Shown here: positions 4,515 to 64,000 of the stretch, piece after piece
Position numbering within the stretch: the first letter of the stretch is position 1
Layout: the number at the start of each line of letters is the position of its first letter
Assembly (NCBI RefSeq): GCF_037042905.1
Contig: NC_087251.1
Location: 46,812,001 to 46,876,000, forward strand
DNA length: 64,000 nt
Reading direction: 5' to 3'
From: Lytechinus pictus
Taxonomy: Eukaryota
Translations under genes and position numbers: made by a program
Notes under the pieces: model-generated
The model's input: only the letters and a program-made list of their open reading frames with translations
Database searches by the model: none
What the model was told of the DNA's origin: nothing

Positions 4515-6890
4515 GCTCTCACTGCATTTCAAGAGATGTTAAATCATTTCCCCTTTTTTACATATTTAAAAAAAAATTTTTTTACGAATTTAGAGTAGAT
4601 ATTTTTTTTAGTAACCTTATTTCAATTTCACATTTTAATCAAGACACTGCTGCTTCACTGAATGATGTTGTTTGATAACTTTAATAAATTTTGTATTCAG
4701 ATAAATCATGTTTTCACAATTGTTTTGAAATCATGAAAATTATATTTTCATCTTGCATCAAACATGCAGTAGAAATACTAAACATGCAGTAGTAATACTA
4801 AATGGTAAAACGAACGAACTAACAATTTGTTATGATTAGTTTATTATAATTCATTATTTAAAGAGTAAAAAGGGTATCACTGCATCTGCATCACAACGTC
4901 TTATTCACATCAAGTTATAAAACGAATATTCGCAAAATAATTAATTGATCTGAAGAAATTTTGAACATGATTACCAAAAAGAGACCAACGGCATATTCTA
5001 TATTTGGTTCTCCCCCGATATAACAACAAAAAAAAGAATGAATTTCGATTTTTTTTTTCTGCTCTGAACCATCAGTACTTGTATCCAAAGAGAAGTTGAA
5101 TTTTCAATAGTATAAGTGAAATTCTAACAGAGCAATTATTAACGATGAAGTAAGTTTATGATATTTTATGAACTTTTTCTTCAAAGAAAGAACCACCTGG
5201 AATACATATTACAAATAAATTTGAATGAAAGGTAATTAGACTTCAGATAATTGCAGGGTAATTGATTTATTATCTTTTGAAATGCAGTGATATAGGGTAA
5301 GTATTGTAAATATTCTTTATATACTATTTTACTTTAGAATTCTCATAGCTGTTCGATATTACAATTATGATTGGTATAACAGTTTGGCAAATACAAGGGC
5401 CCTAGTTGGATAAACGTTATACTATTCGGGTAACGTTTTTCATCCAATGGTAACTAAATCTAGGTTGATCATGGAACATGTGGAGATTACCATTGGATAG
5501 CAACTTCATTTTGAAGCAACTGGGCTCTACCCATAAACCATTGCAGTGAAATTAAACTAATTGCTCGTTCAAACGAAAGAAGTTCTGCAGTACTTCTAAA
5601 AAATCTCGGCTCTGGATAAAGTAATAAAAAATACAAAATTGATTTGATTTGTGATTATTCGAATTCCAGTTCGTGTCGGCCAGGATAACTTGTACGTAGT
5701 CTGCAGCCAAAATATCGTGATTGAAATTGTTACCATATTTACTCATCAACTTGATGAAAGTATAGCATCATAAATCAAATCAAGAAGCCAGGGAGCTTTT
5801 ACAATAGTATGCAAATTCAGGCCACTTTCTTAAAGAAATGGTTTACCCAGCAAACTAACTTAAGCATTATATTTCATTAATAAAGATCATATCAGCTGAT
5901 CAACAACGATGAATTTCATACGCAAACATAAAGATAGAAAACATCATTCGTTGCAACTTGTAATTATATGACCAAAAAAAAACATGAACCGCTATGTTTA
6001 GAAAAATGAAACAAGAATTGATATTGAAATGAAACTAACTGAATAACAATCTGGTCAATATTCAAAAAGATTTTCATGCACTGTTGATAATACGGAGATG
6101 GAGCAATCGGTATCGTAACCGAAGGTAGTCCATCACGGTACAGAGCGGGGTGGGGCTCTGTACACAGGGGCGGCGCCCGGGTATTTTTGATTGGAGGATG
6201 GGGTGTGAGACATTATGAAGATTGCTTTTTTTCTCAATTGAATCAATTTTAACATAGCAATTTCTTTTACACTTTTCATTCTCTTCATTTCCCTTCTATT
6301 TCTATTTTTACTCTCCCCCAGTTTTCACTACTTGAAAAAAAATTTGGGGAACACCCCCTGCCCCCCCCCCGCCCCTTCTGTGGTGCCGCCCGGCCTGTCT
6401 GTACAAAATGTCGAAGGCATGTATTTTTTAACAATTATTATTTTCGCAGGGTAGGTGTTGTAATGGGTCATTCATGTGAAGTGGATTAAAAATAAATTCT
6501 CTCCTTCCTTTTTAAAGGCTATGGCTATATGAGAAGGAGGAGAAGAGTTATTCGAAAAAATATATATTTGTCCAGAGGTGGGGTACATTGTGTGTGTGCG
6601 TGTAAAAGGGGAAGGTCATTCAGGGGGACCGTATCATTAACGGACTAGTCAGACGTTTCATCCGACTAAGTTTGCTTAATTCGACAGTTACATTCGTAAT
6701 AAGGCTTCCCAACCAATGAAAATCGAGAAAAATGTCACATGGCATAATAGGATAAAAACTGTTTAAAACTGTATATGCATATGTTTTTCTTTTCTTAGAA
6801 CATTGAAATAAACAGTAATTAATATCATTTAAAATATGGCTTTGTGAGAAACATTTCACAAAAAAGGCAAAAATAACTAGGCTTATATTA

Positions 6891-55500: not shown

Positions 55501-58500
55501 AGGACTGAGTTGCTGCTGGTAATGTAGATTGTGTGTAGGCTGGGATGTCTTTCTTAGGCTCTTCAATCTGTAAGTGATCGTGAAAATCAACACAAAGCTG
55601 TAAGAACAATTCCACAGATTTATATCTTATTTTGTCCACATCAACAAAGCTACTGGCGAACGTTCCATCGACACTCTACAGCAATGCCAAGTAATAGGAC
55701 GGAACACATTTTTAATGGGCAAGGTCCGAGTCCGACATGCCACTTCCATGGGTCAGCTTCACCTTGTAGTTGCAGTAATCACCCTTACCCCCTCTTCCTC
55801 TGCCAGAATGCATTCTCCATCATAAACCCAAACCTCCTGTTCTCTTGCTCCATTTGCTTCTTTCATCCATTCCTCCTTTGAACACATCCGGCAGAGGCGG
55901 CAGAACGTCAGGCTCATACAATGAAAGTGGAGAGGCACTTATTGTTTGGCAGACAAAAGGTGCCCCTCCACTTTCTTTGTCCAAGCCTGATGTTCCGCCG
56001 CCTCTGACATCAGGAGAGTGTTACAGAAAAGGACTTGTCGGACGATTTATCTGACAAGTCCTGTTTTATCCCACAGTTACCATGCACTAACAAGGCTTCT
56101 CAGCCAATCAAAATCGGGGAAAGTTGTCTCATCGAATGACATGTTGGATGAAATTATTGATGAAACATTCCCTAGTAGAAATGGAGAGCCTCGAAGTGTT
56201 ACACCAACTTGTAATGAAATTAATAGGGTACAAATAATCTGGAAGACAAGTGCTCATCTTTTATTTTCACATTTATTAGAGTGGCAAACATTCTTTTATG
56301 TCACAAAAAGTACATTTCATGGCTACATAATCATCTACGAGCATGCCTGGTGCATTAATCTGATGCCTCCGCAGCATACGTACATCTGCATATAAATCGT
56401 GTCAATTATGAATTATGACACTACTCTCCTCCAACGACAAATCGAAGCAACTCTGTGGAATGAGTTTCTTAGTAAATGAGGAAAATGTGTCATTGCTTTT
56501 ATGTGGAAAATACTGGTTTATTGGGAGTTACTTGCTTTAGAAATATCTACACTTGACAAATTGGGATTGTGTGACTCCAATTCCTTTAACATCACAGTAA
56601 AGCGACCAGAAAATATCTTAAATCAAGAAAAAACAACAGAGTTCTTTCCTTTTGTCAGAGTACGACAGAACACTTGTCAACTAAAAAAATCTGTTGGCAG
56701 CAAATGCTTAAGGGGAAGACCTGTCTCAATGCTATGCTTTTGGCAAAGGAGTGAGTTGGGATAGAAATGGGCCACTGCACTATTGTGAAAATGTTAACAT
56801 TGCCTTGATGGGAGATCCCATAGCCCAGTAGGTAGAGCACTGGTTGTGCATGCCAGGGTCCTAGGTTCAAATGATTTTAAAACATTTTTTTCCTCTACCG
56901 TACTTTAACTCCTTCCAATAATGATGGCAGGAAGTGGGGCGACTTACTCTTTAAAACAAGGATTAATTCCGATCGATACTATCGCCAAATTTTACGCACC
57001 AAATACCAAAATAGGCCCTTGACAGCATCATTTCCTGTGCGCGCATGAGGCGTGCATGTAGCCATCGTATGATGTGATTGCAATGCCCGTGCTGATCTGG
57101 GGTTTCATCTACCTGGTTTTCGCCGCCTTTCCTGCATTCGATTTTCAGAAAAGACAGAATGGAGTTATTTCTAATGCGGCGTTTTCAGGTTGGATCTATT
57201 GTGCCAAAAGGTGAGGAATTTTCACAAATTATACAAAACACCATGAAGGATGACAAGAGTGTGAATTCTCATACTGGCAAGTTTGTTGTGCAAGCGTTTT
57301 TGCAAATAAATGCTTAAACAGGGAATGGGATTGAACATAATTTGTGATGAATGCTTGGTAATCTAGCCTGCTGGCATGTACAGTGGATTGCGTGAGTTGC
57401 CTTGCTTTGGCGTAGGAACTTGATGATTTATAGGAGCCTACTGCGAAGTAGTAAGTACAGGGCTAATCATTGCCTCAAACGGTGCCCAAAGAGCTCAGCT
57501 TCATTTAGAGCACTGGTCCTGCAAGCCTGGGTCCTGGGTTAAGGTGTACATTTCATAGAGACTTATAACTATTATAACTTTGCCATTTTGGAACTGCAAT
57601 GGAAACATTGATTGTCACTGGCTGCTGATCCCTGTTACCATGGTAGTAGCCATAATGGCAAAGTTACAAAAATTGTGGTTCTTAATGGAACAGCCTCCAG
57701 ATCCCAGTCAGGGCAGTGTAATTTTCTAATATTAAGTTCTATGATTATTTCCTACCCTACAAATTATGATACTTATAATTTTACAATACGAAAACATTTT
57801 TCTTCATTTGTTTTGTTTTTCTTTTTGCAGGAAACAAAAACAAACTTACCAACGACAGTCCTAATCCTGCTCTTGCCCAGTTGACCGTTGCTAGATATTT
57901 CCGGAGTGTCTCAGCGACAGGTGATATCATGTTGGGGCTTGGGAATATGCTGACGTTACAGGTCGGACATGTGTAGCCTGCTGGTGCAGTGTTGGAAGGG
58001 AAGTTCCTCGCATAGGCATCCAAGCATTCCCAGTGAAACACATCTGTGAATAAAAAGATTGAAAGCGGAATAGAGAAAATAAAAGTACAACTACACATAT
58101 AGTTCTGAAATGCAATTTACAGGGTCATGTGGTCTAATGATTAGAAAATTGGACTCATGATCGTGAGGTTGTGAGTTTCAATCCCCGCTTGGCCATTATC
58201 TCCCCTTTAACCAAAAGGGCCATAGAGTTATTTCTGTTGTCTATGAAGTCAGCCACTATGACTGATTAACATAAAATTGGTTATTGACCAACTTTGCATT
58301 TGATGTGGCGGAAAGCTGCCCCAAGTTCCTATGGGAATGACTTCAATAGAAACAGAAAATACATTGCACTTCAGCAAAGTACGTCAGCTATAAAGTTGAC
58401 TGTGAGTGACACCAGTCCATCCACACTAAAATAAAAATATCAATAACTTGGTTCCTTGTATTTGAATTCAAAACATGACAGGTCTATGGTAAAAAATAAA

Positions 58501-58720
58501 AGAAAAAAGGGAGTAAACTTGAAGTGCATTACAACAAAATTTGTGAATATTAAAGACATTCAGTAAAAATTGCCTCTTGTTGAAAATGGAGTAGTAGGTC
58601 TTACTTACCATAACATAACAATCTAACCACATCGCCATCTGCCAATTCATTATCACACAATGAACACTTTGTACTGTAATCACTATCTTGTAGCCATTGA
58701 AGATATGACTTCACAATACA
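52576..58720 (-). CDS. ZFPL1: Zinc finger protein-like 1 (cis-Golgi tail-anchored protein); first coding exon lies beyond the window end
   Basis: Exons 58720-58609 ([23 protein letters not shown]), 58043-57850 ([33 protein letters not shown]), 55567-55282, 54700-54586 ([23 protein letters not shown]) and 52771-52576 (TM helix, [15 protein letters not shown]). All GT-AG and phase-consistent. Confidence 0.96.
53769..53987. mobile_element. Palindromic MITE in a ZFPL1 intron, followed by a second truncated start
   Basis: ggggtgttgcaagaaa ... tttcttgcaacacccc, then gggggtgttgcaagaaa again at ~53991. Confidence 0.75.
54162..54554. mobile_element. MITE with CAGGGTTCCC TIRs and a 5-bp TSD (hAT-like)
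   Basis: aagca|cagggttccc ... gggaaccctg|aagca; internal aaattccctga repeats. Confidence 0.85.
56014..56172 (+). mobile_element. Diverged copy of the MITE family found inside the transposase at 61499
   Basis: Shared ggacttgtcggacg.tttat..gacaagtcc..tatcc.acagttaccat..gccaatcaaaatc..ttgatgaaac. Confidence 0.8.
58121..58330 (+). mobile_element. tRNA-derived SINE, same family as the copy at 12239
   Basis: gggtcatgtggtctaatgattag..gtgagtttcaatccc..cattatctcc..gtcagccactatgactgattaa. Confidence 0.75.
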
Positions 58721-60171
58721 CTGAAAAGAACAGAAGAATATATTAAATTACATTCACATTATTTTTAATGATTTTAAAAATTACAGAATGTTATCACAAA
58801 TTTCATAAAAAAGAAATATGAAAGCATCATGACTCGGGAATAATTTTTCTGGGATTACATCACAATTTTCTCTGAATTTGTATGACTGATACAATACAGG
58901 TTTTGAAGAGAAGGGAAAAGAGGGGTTGATAGAATATACACATTAATTACCGTGCGTTAAATCGTTGAAAAGGTGGATAAAGAACGATAAATAGACAGTA
59001 TCTATATTCAGTGAATAGAAATGCCAAGAGTAAAAAATATTTAGAATTAACGGCAGACCTATTCTCACTAAATAAACAATTTGCGTAGGAATACATGCCT
59101 AAATAAACAAATTCAAGTCATTCATGTAGATGACAAAATAAATATAAATAGGCATATCACCAAATGAACATCTCGGAAAATAGTAAAGGTATAGGGCCTA
59201 CTACTGACTCAATAAATAGCTCGAGTTTGGGCTGCTGACGTCATAATAGAGCCAGTTACTACTCTCGTAGGTGTGAAGCTATTTTTTTCTCAATGGCATC
59301 TACACGTACATGATATCGTATGTTACATGTGTGTAGGTATGCCTAATTCAGTGGAGATGTAAATTTCAATGCCCGTTACGATGATTGACGTTTGGACTGG
59401 CCCGTTTGTAGAGGATGTTTTGGATACATGGCAAAAATGTGTTTGCCTCGTGAAATACCCCCTCCCCCTTGAAAGTTAAATCAAATGTCTTACCGTTTTT
59501 CTATAATTTAGTGTTTTGCTAATATAATTAATAAATCCCATGCATTGAAAGTTCACTTTGAAATAAGGATTTATGGATAGGCCTATGATACACATTCAAA
59601 CTTCACATGTATTGTTAATTTAATGGAGAATCAAATAGCCTAAATCACTATAATGAATATGCATGTTGTGATATGTATAAGGTAGACTTATTCTTGGAAT
59701 AAAAGTGTGTAAATAGATCAGAACAATTCGTGTGTTGGATGTAAACATCTCTCGGGAGGGGGGGGGGGGTCAGTTGCCGCCAAAACTTGCTGGAAGTGAG
59801 AACATCGCACAGGTGCATGTATGCAGGAATATTTCATTCATGAAGATTCATGTATATTACATCTCTGGGTGAAGTGTGTGTCTCTCATTCATTTTCAGTT
59901 ACACACTGTTTGTGGGAAATGAATAAGTTATGTGATTGGTCGATTCTGCGCATGATTAGAAGTTGGAAAATACTGCACACTGATTTGTCTATTCAGTAAC
60001 TCCATTTGACCAATGAAAACCTGTAATATTGTCACGACATTGATTGATTGACAACTGATTCACTAGCTCTCTACTCATGATTATTCATAAGAATCTCGAT
60101 AACCTTATTATCAATCTGGCGCGTGGCTCACCAGTAGCTATTATCTTTCTGAATATTACAACTGCCATAAA

Positions 60172-60514
60172 ATGTCAACCAGGAATTGACAAATATATTT
60201 ACTTTGGAGTGATATTCAGGATATCATCGGAGAGGCAAATGTATGGCCGAGAAGAATTAGAAGATATTTTTGGAATAAGAATCGAAGACATTGGAAAAGG
60301 TGTTTAGTTCGTTTTTGTCAACGGCCTGAATCCCATAGTATTCATGGAATGGGCTAACCTGTACGGGTTATGCCGAGATAGAGCAGCTGTTTTGCACTTT
60401 GAAGCTCTGTCTCGCCTTTCCGAAGGAGGAAGAAACTATCGGATATATGCATGGAATATTTCGACAAAGCGGTATGAATACCTAAATGGTCAACCTAAAT
60501 ACTACCACATAAAG
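60172..60514 (+). pseudogene. Decayed small (~113-aa) Trp/aromatic-rich accessory protein upstream of the transposase
   Basis: MSTRN*QIYLLWSDIQDIIGEANVWPRRIRRYFWNKNRRHWKRCLV, frameshift at ~60309, then FVFVNGLNPIVFMEWANLYGLCRDRAAVLHFEALSRLSEGGRNYRIYAWNISTKRYEYLNGQPKYYHIK followed by a GTAAGT donor. The TGA at 60187 is plausibly a CpG-decayed CGA. Confidence 0.65.
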
Positions 60515-60703
60515 GTAAGTTTTATTCTGCAAATCTGTTTCAATGCATTTAGGTCTATATGAATATTCATAAGCCCCATTTAGTTTTTGGTATAGGTAGG
60601 CGTTGTCAAATTATGTAGATCTTTGCCTGAGTGAGTGATACTGATTACGGTTCCCGCCAATTTGATTCACTTCACACTAAGTCGTCGATGTAAGATCATC
60701 AAC

Positions 60704-62249
60704 ATGACTTGGTCAAAGCGAGAGCAATCCAACATCGGATTACTAAATTTTCACAACCCATTTTCTTTTCACCTGCTTTTAGCCCAGATGTCTTGTACAA
60801 ATGGTTAAAGGAGAATCATTTCATTGCATCACAAATATTTTGTGAAGTTTGCAAGAAACCTTGCAAGGCAATTAAGAAAGTGGGAAGGAAAGGAGGCAGA
60901 TGGCCTCACGAGAAGAGTTATTCCGGCCACAAGTTTTCCTATTTTGAGGGAACTCATTTTGATGTCCGGGAGATACTAATCTTTTTGAGAGAGTGGATCT
61001 TGGGATCTACACTTCACCGCTGTGCTGTTGAATCCGAAATGGATTACAAGAACTCCGCCGTGGACTAGGCAAATTTCCTCCGGAAGTTCGTCCATGATCT
61101 GTATTATGAGTCAAAAACTTCGCGGGGAAGTTGAGATCGACGAGAGCTTGTTCAGGAGGCGAACCAAGTTCCATAGGGGAGATCCTCGCGAACTGAAAAT
61201 ATGGATCTTCCGGATGGTCGAAAGATCTTCAAATAGGATCGTTCTCTACCCAGTTGAGAAAAGAGACGAGAACACTCTGCTGCCATTGATCAAACGACGT
61301 GTGGAAAAGGGATCAACAATCTACTCGGATGGATGGCATGCCTATTATAGGTTGAACGAGATCAGGTATTGTCATTTTACCGTTGAGCACTCCCGACACC
61401 TTTGTGCAGAAGTATCGAGACATGGCAACAGGAGAGGCAAACACCGTTCATACTAATACGATAGAAGGTGCCTGGAAGCAAGGGAAAGACCACTTCTGGG
61501 GAGCGTTTCATGAAAGGACTTGTCGGACGTTTTATCCGACAAGTCCCATTATATCCGACAGTTACCATAGTAACAGTGCGGCTCTGCCAATCAAAATCAA
61601 GGAAAGATGTCAGATCTGACAACTTGTCGGACAAAAATGTTGATGAAACGCCCCCCAGGAGAATGAATGGGTGCAAAGCATCGACATTCGAATCTCATCT
61701 CTGTGAAGTGATATGGAGAAACAGGAATGCGGCAAGCAAACGCCTGCATTCATGGATTTGATCAGGGATCACTATCATCCCAGAGGAAAACCCGACAAGA
61801 AGGACAACCTCATGAGAGAGGAATCAACGAGCGAAGCCCCTGCCCGGATAGATTCTCCGCCAAGAGAACTAGTAGCTTCACCAGAGAGAGCATCGCCCCC
61901 ATTGCCTCCAAGAGACGTTCCCGGACTGTCAGGCATCCGTCCACAAGCCGCATCATCCGTGCATTCGTCATCCTCGACTCCCACCGTCAAGCACGTCCTC
62001 TCCTCGCTGAGTTCTAGCATCGCTAGTCCGCTTCGTGTAACATCGCCATCTTTCGGCCGAAGCAAGAAAGGCAAGGGGAAGAAGAAGCATAGAAGTGACA
62101 CTGTAACTGGCACATTACATCATCCTCCCGGCTTTGTACCCATCGACAAGAAAGAGAAAACCAAACCTTAGAAGGACAAGAGTGTAAATCTGTATGAAAG
62201 GCAAAACTTCGTTGCAGATTCAGGATCAGACGACGATTATTTCCAGTAG
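60704..62249 (+). pseudogene. ISXO2-like / IS1595 (Merlin) DDE transposase pseudogene
   Basis: N-terminal CxxC (CEVC), SAVD*ANF (TGG>TAG), VEIDES (D), WIF.MVER, RDENTLLPLI, GSTIYSDGW..Y (D), HFTVEHS, VHTNTIEGAW (E), FESHLCEVIWRN. Several frameshifts and stops, a MITE insertion, and a Ser/Pro/Lys-rich C-terminal tail. Confidence 0.93.
61499..61655. mobile_element. 157-bp Harbinger-like MITE inserted in the transposase
   Basis: ctg|gggagcgtttcat ... atgaaacgccccc|cag; removing it restores KDHFRRMNG. Confidence 0.9.
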
Positions 62250-63427
62250 ATGAGTTCCAAAAAAAAATTTGTGTTTGTGTTTGGAGTTTTAATTCAGACT
62301 GGATTTTGAAAATTACACGCCTATTTTTGTGGCAATTGGAGTTTGGAAACTTTTTAGTAATGACTTTGAAGAACAGAATTGTTGGATTTGACTGCTCTCA
62401 TGATCATATGGATATGAATTTGGAGCTAATTCGCATTTTGGCATTGATCATCGTCATAGTTACTCATCAGGAATAATGTAGATTCATAATATACATTATA
62501 TATATATTTCTGGAAGATAATTTAGAAGATATGTAAATAGTAATGCGTGATTATATTAGCTTGTGAAAGGGATCTGTGCATTTTGTAAATATTTTTATAT
62601 CATTTAATTTTATTCATGAAAAGTATAATCTTAAATTAAAGCCCAGCTTTTCTGATCTATCACAGTTCAATTTATTCAGTAAGATAACCAATGGGACAAA
62701 TATCAGACTTAATCATTTTTGTTAAATTTTATTTTTCAGGATCTCTTTTGGCAAGGCCCCAGTTAATAACGATACGTGCCTCTACATTCTTCCCCTCAAC
62801 TTCTGACAGCAACAATTTTCAGAAAAGCTAATTAATCATCCGGAATATCATTGCTAGGTAAGTTAGAAAACGAAATGAAATTGCCTTACATTCATTTAGT
62901 CAGTGACACTCACGCTACTTAAACTTTTCAATGAGCTTCAATTAGACCCTACTAGTAAACTGATCGAGGGTTTTGTTTTATTTTGTCGGCAAAGTTAAAA
63001 TGGAATTCTCGATTCCTACAAGTAATTAAATTTGTGTAATGGAATTCATTTAGTTGTAATTGGACAATCATTTTCTCATTTTCTAAAAGTGAAAAAAAAA
63101 AATTTCTTACATTTAGGCCTGAATTTATTATATATGCACCTTGTATTAATCTTCAATTTATTTAGTTCGTTGTCAGTTTTGTCAGTAAAAGGAAAACGTG
63201 ATTGTTCTGCGTATAGATATGGGATTTTACTTCTTTATATAATTTTCTCTGCCGGTTTGCAGGACCCTTTGATGAGTTGTGACTTCAGCCGACCAGAACG
63301 ACGTGATCCCCATGACAACCGCCACAACCTCCTGTGAGCTCTGCCGTTCACCGCGCTGGCAACTGGAGAATTTGAGAAGGAACGATTAACAATCAAAGGG
63401 TAGTTTTTTGTACTCCTTTTTAGGTAA

Positions 63428-64000
63428 TCCACTTAAAATAGATCAATTCAAACTGTCTATATATTTATCCTCCTTTTTTACTCCACTTTTTATCGAAATT
63501 ATGCACGGTAATTAACCTGTATATTAATTACATCAACCCCTCTTTTCCCTTCTCTTCAAAACCACTGTGCTACTTTTGGCCAGTAGGCTATCCACTAAAT
63601 AAATCAATTCAACTCTCTATATACTTATCCTCCTTTTTTTACTCCACTTTTTCAACGAAATTATGCACGGTAATTAACCTGTATTCCATCAACCCCTCTT
63701 TTCCCTTCTCTTCAAATTCTCTCTGTCACTTTGGCCAGTACGCTACTTGTCCTCCTTTTTTACACAAATTTTAAACCAAATTACGCACGGTAATATATTC
63801 CATCAATCCTCTTTTCCTTTCTCTTCTAAACCACTCTGCCACTTTTAGACAGTAGGCTATCCACTAAATAAATCAATTCAACTGTCTATATGCTTATCCT
63901 ACTTTTTGACTCCACTATTCAACCAATACTACGCACGGTTATTAACTGGATATTCCATCAACCCCTCTTTTCCCTTCTCTTCTAAACCACTCTTCCACTT
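63428..64000 (+). repeat. ~150-160-bp tandem repeat array (about 4 units, one shortened; continues to the window end)
   Basis: Recurring atccact..aatcaattcaact.tctata..ttatcct..gcacggtaattaac..catcaacccctcttttcccttctcttc..aaccact. Confidence 0.92.

Follow-up and report, generated by a model that had tools for sequence, protein, structure and literature searches.

Remains of a Merlin element in Lytechinus pictus

The window analysed here comprises 64,000 nucleotides of the Lytechinus pictus genome (contig NC_087251.1, positions 46,812,001 to 46,876,000) and, from position 58899 onwards, holds the remains of a DNA transposon of the Merlin superfamily. An earlier note on this DNA had proposed a large cargo-carrying Merlin with opposed repeats of about 150 bp, derived from a multi-gene family whose intact members may have several spliced genes. 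With moderate confidence, and relying in part on predicted models, we read the stretch as a dead, left-truncated two-gene Merlin whose second gene, open reading frame 1 (ORF1), encodes a protein of predicted primase-large-subunit-like fold, likely to bind single-stranded DNA (ssDNA) or nucleotide ends in transposition. The window copy itself is ordinary decayed DNA in which both genes are broken. Its parts are listed below; coordinates above 64,000 are extended window coordinates (contig position minus 46,812,000).

58899..58999, plus strand: inner end of the left subterminal arm, truncated (part of one 156-bp unit); matches the intact family from position 947
59000..60171, plus strand: 5′ non-coding region of the element; 82% identity to the intact copy over aligned columns
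60172..60508, plus strand: ORF1 pseudogene (114 aa in the intact copy)
60514/60515, plus strand: splice-donor consensus AAAG/GTAAGT, just 3′ of the ORF1 stop position
60704..62249, plus strand: pseudogene of the Merlin transposase; the intact copy encodes 489 aa that include a CxxC motif, a DDE core and a low-complexity tail
61497..61656, no strand: 160-bp element with inverted ends, nested in the transposase sequence and breaking it up; relatives at window 56007-56180 and 6618-6694
62740..62857, plus strand: exon A, likely non-coding; both of its splice sites persist in an alignment of four copies
63263..63400, plus strand: exon B, likely a non-coding terminal exon; differs from the intact copy by indels of 8, 1, 4, 1 and 6 nt; 3′ end putative
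63421..64000 and on to 64,057, plus strand: right subterminal array of 156-bp units, inverted relative to the partial unit at 58899-58999
64,030-64,213 (extended): hairpin of 184 bp, followed by unique subterminal DNA
64,497-70,667 (extended): nested insertion of 6.2 kb with a 6-bp duplication
70,668-70,695 (extended): right terminal inverted repeat (TIR), flank AAATTTTT; pushed outward by the 6.2-kb insertion

The copy starts at family position 947; the left 946 bp—TIR, hairpin, and most of the array—and the target-site duplication (TSD) are missing, and extension of the window recovers the right TIR only. Identity to the intact copy ranges from 80 to 93% by region and is 70% in exon B, and the hairpin folds with a z-score of -13. 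The small ORF formerly regarded as accessory is indeed present and represents a conserved family gene, broken here by a premature stop (codon 6), a deletion of 8 nt, and loss of the stop codon. The ISXO2-like transposase with its long low-complexity tail is confirmed by a match to PF12762 (E 3e-17) despite several frameshifts and the nested element. The three 160-bp elements listed above form one family with GGG...CCC inverted ends.

A genome search with the DNA of the element returned six matches, one of them intact. This copy, located at C7:36.25 Mb, measures 7,153 bp and is bounded by imperfect 28-bp TIRs beginning with GGC and by the TSD TGGTTCTT. On C11, another copy shares these ends (TSD TTTAACAG) and contains an internal deletion and a 4-kb insertion; the latter (4.1 kb, approximately 11,304,850-11,308,970) has long perfect inverted ends and lies in the intron between exons A and B. 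Inside the TIRs, inverted arms of about 1 kb each consist of a 200-bp hairpin and tandem 156-bp units, and the opposed repeats noticed in the window are the inner parts of these arms rather than element ends. Between the arms follow ORF1, a 195-bp spacer, the transposase, and 1.2 kb containing both exon-like segments. Both coding frames are unspliced, and no further ORF with homology was found in the intact element. Because ORF, exons, and repeats recur in order within a single copy bounded by TIRs and a TSD, they belong to one element of a multi-gene family, as had been proposed; the genes are, however, two in number, their frames are unspliced, and the exons downstream are likely non-coding. 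Five Rfam matches in the intact element, mostly in the hairpin, all score far below the gathering threshold. A search with the left end yielded gene-less derivatives with the same TIRs; an exact 8-bp TSD flanks 7 of the 10 two-ended ones and 9 of 12 two-ended family copies overall. Gene-less relatives at C3:5.85, 24.60, and 30.33 Mb still contain exon A, the 156-bp array, and a segment resembling exon B, the one at 24.60 Mb showing a tandem duplication of a 5.4-kb unit.

Merlin elements, according to Feschotte (2004) as summarised in PMC8101967, feature a DDE_Tnp_IS1595 transposase, TIRs of at least 24 bp starting from GG, and TSDs of 8–9 bp. All of these are found among the family copies: the intact transposase matches PF12762 (E 2e-22) and displays the D, D, E residues in the motifs EID, SDG, and TIEG of the transposase alignment, the TIRs exceed the minimum length and start with 5′-GG, and the TSDs are of the expected size. 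A single transposase gene, with which Merlins are also credited, is not what this family has, but that trait describes the superfamily and does not define it. Internal tandem repeats and imperfect TIRs are likewise shared with the elements surveyed in PMC8101967; large size and repeat arms are already known from the zebrafish elements Merlin-1_DR and Merlin-2_DR (10–13 kb, with repeat arms; S1 Table of the same survey) and are not new. Features of this family that go beyond the Merlins described there are a second gene under selection, a splice donor behind its stop, probably non-coding exons, and 200-bp hairpins. The main text of PMC8101967 does not mention 'accessory', 'primase', 'hairpin', or 'intron', and an extra ORF in antisense orientation that the survey reports is judged there to have arisen by chance. 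Literature searches turned up no account of an accessory or primase-like gene in Merlin; entries in Repbase or Dfam, the 2004 paper, or supplements to PMC8101967 may annotate a second ORF. Merlins are generally portrayed as having one gene, and there has been little work on their mechanism. PIF/Harbinger, CACTA, and MuDR transposons likewise combine a transposase and a second gene within the same ends, and some bacterial IS1595 members carry passenger genes; the second proteins are unrelated to ORF1, however, and the elements belong to other superfamilies or, for IS1595, to another domain of life.

ORF1 as a gene of the element

In a search of the genome with the ORF1 protein, 19 of 25 candidates match, yielding 13 copies in 11 regions. 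At all 13, transposase sequence follows ORF1 on the same strand, in one case with just the first 29 residues left in this arrangement. ORF1 is under purifying selection: synonymous divergence (dS) is 0.18 and nonsynonymous divergence (dN) 0.025 for the pair C10/C1, and dN is 0.14 at saturated dS for the pair C7/C2; the window copy shows a decay pattern in this comparison. That ORF1 is neutral passenger DNA, or that ORF, exons, and repeats are independent insertions, would agree with the occurrence of some metagenome loci at which ORF1 has no transposase within 3–9 kb. The intact copy with the same order inside its TIRs and TSD, the linkage, and the selection nevertheless refute this view for this genome, and it is hardly credible in general.

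The two genes also diverge together. Over the 13 loci, the identities of ORF1 and transposase correlate (rho 0.64, p 0.0016, near-copies included), and between two subfamilies ORF1 shows 61% identity versus 36% for the transposase. For this reason the term 'cargo' is too weak for ORF1, although the multi-gene nature of the family had been rightly recognised.

The protein database contains 144 ORF1 homologues among 633 candidates; of the 120 listed, not one has a Pfam domain or is informatively named. Nothing was found with ORF1 in Pfam, PDB sequences, PHROGs, phage records, viral contigs, and prokaryotic genomes, nor in Atlas (best 0.83 and 0.89). Among 22 metagenome ORF1 loci, the transposase lies downstream as here at 2, is convergent at 3, and is an upstream fragment at 1; 16 have none, 11 of these being on contigs of less than 2.4 kb. 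Two metagenome homologues (L132:44-554 and L138:725-877) are apparently split by introns, pointing to eukaryotic hosts. At two loci, a divergent homologue of 143 aa (hhalign probability 80%, E 1.5e-5) is located downstream of Merlin transposases that belong to the other main clade. In a tree of 38 transposase rows, from which one 87-aa fragment was left out, the 12 rows with ORF1 upstream and the 4 with ORF1 downstream or convergent are separated by a 100/100 branch, and 22 rows have no detected ORF1. ORF1 is therefore an old yet optional Merlin partner. A search for TIRs and TSDs around the older ORF1 subfamilies did not find their ends, so that the full anatomy is established for one subfamily. 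Elsewhere in the genome, two intact Merlin transposase genes of 455 aa, in inverted (divergent) orientation, lie about 3 kb apart at C3:5,966,636-5,970,247, where ORF1 was not detected. At C15:11.801-11.805 Mb, the 3′ part of a Merlin transposase is present five times in tandem, with a broken divergent ORF1 homologue behind it.

Predicted fold and possible role of the ORF1 protein

Although a fold search against the PDB gave weak scores, its best rows form a coherent set of folds resembling the C-terminal domain of the primase large subunit (PriL-CTD). The closest structures found are the BFVD entries A0A345MQ97 (Circoviridae sp.) and A0A345MY62 (Cressdnaviricota sp.), which match over nearly the full length (TM-score 0.69–0.72, probability 1.0, best E 3e-4, 17–24% identity); both sides of this comparison are predicted models, and the viruses, in contrast to Merlin, have no transposase. 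R43 of ORF1, 96% conserved, fits R306 of PriL and R72 of PriX by motif spacing, as judged by eye. ORF1 is predicted to adopt a primase-large-subunit-like helical fold. Sequence and profile searches with ORF1 gave no significant match to PF04104 or to a solved PriL, and profile comparisons between ORF1 and host PriL are not significant. A collection of viral PriL, assembled to deepen the profile comparison, comprised just three marginal loci, and the predicted model of the 143-aa homologue (pLDDT 42, 3 sequences) was not used. Besides the PF04104 locus on C17, the genome contains a second one at C1:36,225,150-36,226,453 with a divergent C-terminal domain.

In contrast to the PriL C-terminal domain (p58C, PF04104) and archaeal PriX as presented in PMC5700102, ORF1 is a stand-alone, transposon-encoded protein of 114 aa with a C-terminal beta-hairpin and no conserved Fe-S cysteines. 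Four cysteines that bind a 4Fe-4S cluster are a feature of PriL and not of PriX; in the 105-row ORF1 alignment, no invariant or nearly invariant column is a cysteine. Because it has neither a catalytic primase domain nor conserved cysteines, ORF1 would act as a binding module, like archaeal PriX. DDE transposases cut at the TIRs and generate the 8-bp TSD; ORF1, as a helper encoded by the element, would operate on the cut ends or on the remaining gap, places at which ends have to be held or DNA synthesis has to begin.

In Harbinger, CACTA, and MuDR elements, the second protein acts as a regulator or transposase partner, and ORF1 may, with lower probability, be a genuine element gene of this kind whose likeness to primase reflects a common helical arrangement. 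The weak fold scores, the co-divergence with the transposase, and the dispensability of ORF1 in many Merlin families are consistent with such a function. The coherence of the best PDB rows, the fit by eye of the most conserved residues to the PriL triphosphate motif, and the much closer structural matches in small DNA viruses devoid of a transposase argue instead for the primase-like helper binding ssDNA or ends. A more far-reaching and rather unlikely proposal is that these Merlins and small circular ssDNA viruses have a PriX-like initiation gene in common, with which the Merlins, aided by host primase and their 200-bp terminal hairpins, initiate DNA synthesis at their own ends. A cut-and-paste element would in this way copy itself, and the gene would have passed between CRESS viruses and two or more Merlin clades.

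ORF1 is better conserved than the transposase and present in both of the main clades seen, and it appears to resemble a primase initiation module. If the proposed helper function is correct, some cut-and-paste elements would themselves encode a means of influencing DNA synthesis or protecting ends, and a set of unnamed CRESS-virus proteins would gain a first functional lead. For experimental work, the 114-aa ORF1 protein is easy to express, its single candidate arginine can be mutated, and one intact copy is available for assays.

Splice signals, transcripts, and the host intron

A donor consensus is located 0–8 nt behind the ORF1 stop, reading GTRAG in 6 of 13 lineages (background 1.1%) and GTRA in 8 of 13 (7.4%). 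Since the lineages are related, these counts show conservation of the putative donor and not independent origin. This strong signal, together with the missing stop codon of the window copy, could mean that a longer, spliced transposase begins with ORF1 as its first coding exon. Such an arrangement is very unlikely: in the intact copy and most of the homologues the stop comes before the donor, which largely refutes it, the transposase has a conserved start of its own, and other families place ORF1 downstream of or opposite to the transposase. In the scheme favoured here, ORF1 would be transcribed from its own promoter—one of two proposed, the other serving the transposase—and its message would be spliced just past the stop and, probably skipping the transposase gene, joined to the likely non-coding exons A and B. 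A junction this close to the stop would escape nonsense-mediated decay. In three copies, but in none of four more distant ones, a similar 12-mer stands roughly 90 nt ahead of ORF1 and roughly 150 nt ahead of the transposase.

Exons A and B do carry strong splice signals, as had been noted, but no reading frame is kept across copies. The acceptor and donor of exon A are retained in the window copy, the intact copy, and two relatives of about 63% identity that have a GC donor. Because exon A contains stops in all three frames in three of these four copies (the window and both distant ones) and exon B has frame-breaking indels between copies, both exons are likely non-coding. That intact members carry several spliced protein-coding cargo genes, one of them encoded by exons A and B, would be in line with this retention of splice sites, with two open exon A frames in the intact copy, and with a single contig joining A to B; given the stops and indels, the varying length of exon A (118, 91, or 106 nt), and an intact element offering no further ORF with homology, it is quite unlikely. 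In the contig, taken from Logan (run X6, guessed to be RNA, depth 430), the match begins at the first base of exon A, whose end continues into sequence following an AG 24 nt upstream of the exon B acceptor originally proposed. Neither the A-B junction nor the 26 letters upstream were found in the genome (2 mismatches) or in the family loci (5 edits). The contig resembles, and may be, the spliced product of a diverged copy, a DNA deletion being possible for this single contig. Raw RNA runs gave 0 reads at 90% (three runs) and 2 partial reads at 82% (one run), counts which, having no host-gene control, are no measure of expression.

The element occupies an intron of a gene on the opposite strand:

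58609..58720, minus strand: host exon 2 (GT-AG bounds and reading frames)
58,721 to 70,984 (extended): intron 1 of the minus-strand host gene
70,985-71,086 (extended), minus strand: host exon 1, with a weak B-box match (Pfam)

The flanking exons bear out the intron location given in the earlier note; its name for the host gene, ZFPL1, is presumptive, the weak B-box match in exon 1 being what Pfam gave. The plus-strand element with its nested insertion, antisense to the host gene, accounts for 11.8 of the 12.3 kb of intron 1. The insertion at 64,497-70,667 has short inverted ends and carries a minus-strand retroelement with PHD, endonuclease, and reverse transcriptase segments in frames of 761 and 204 aa.
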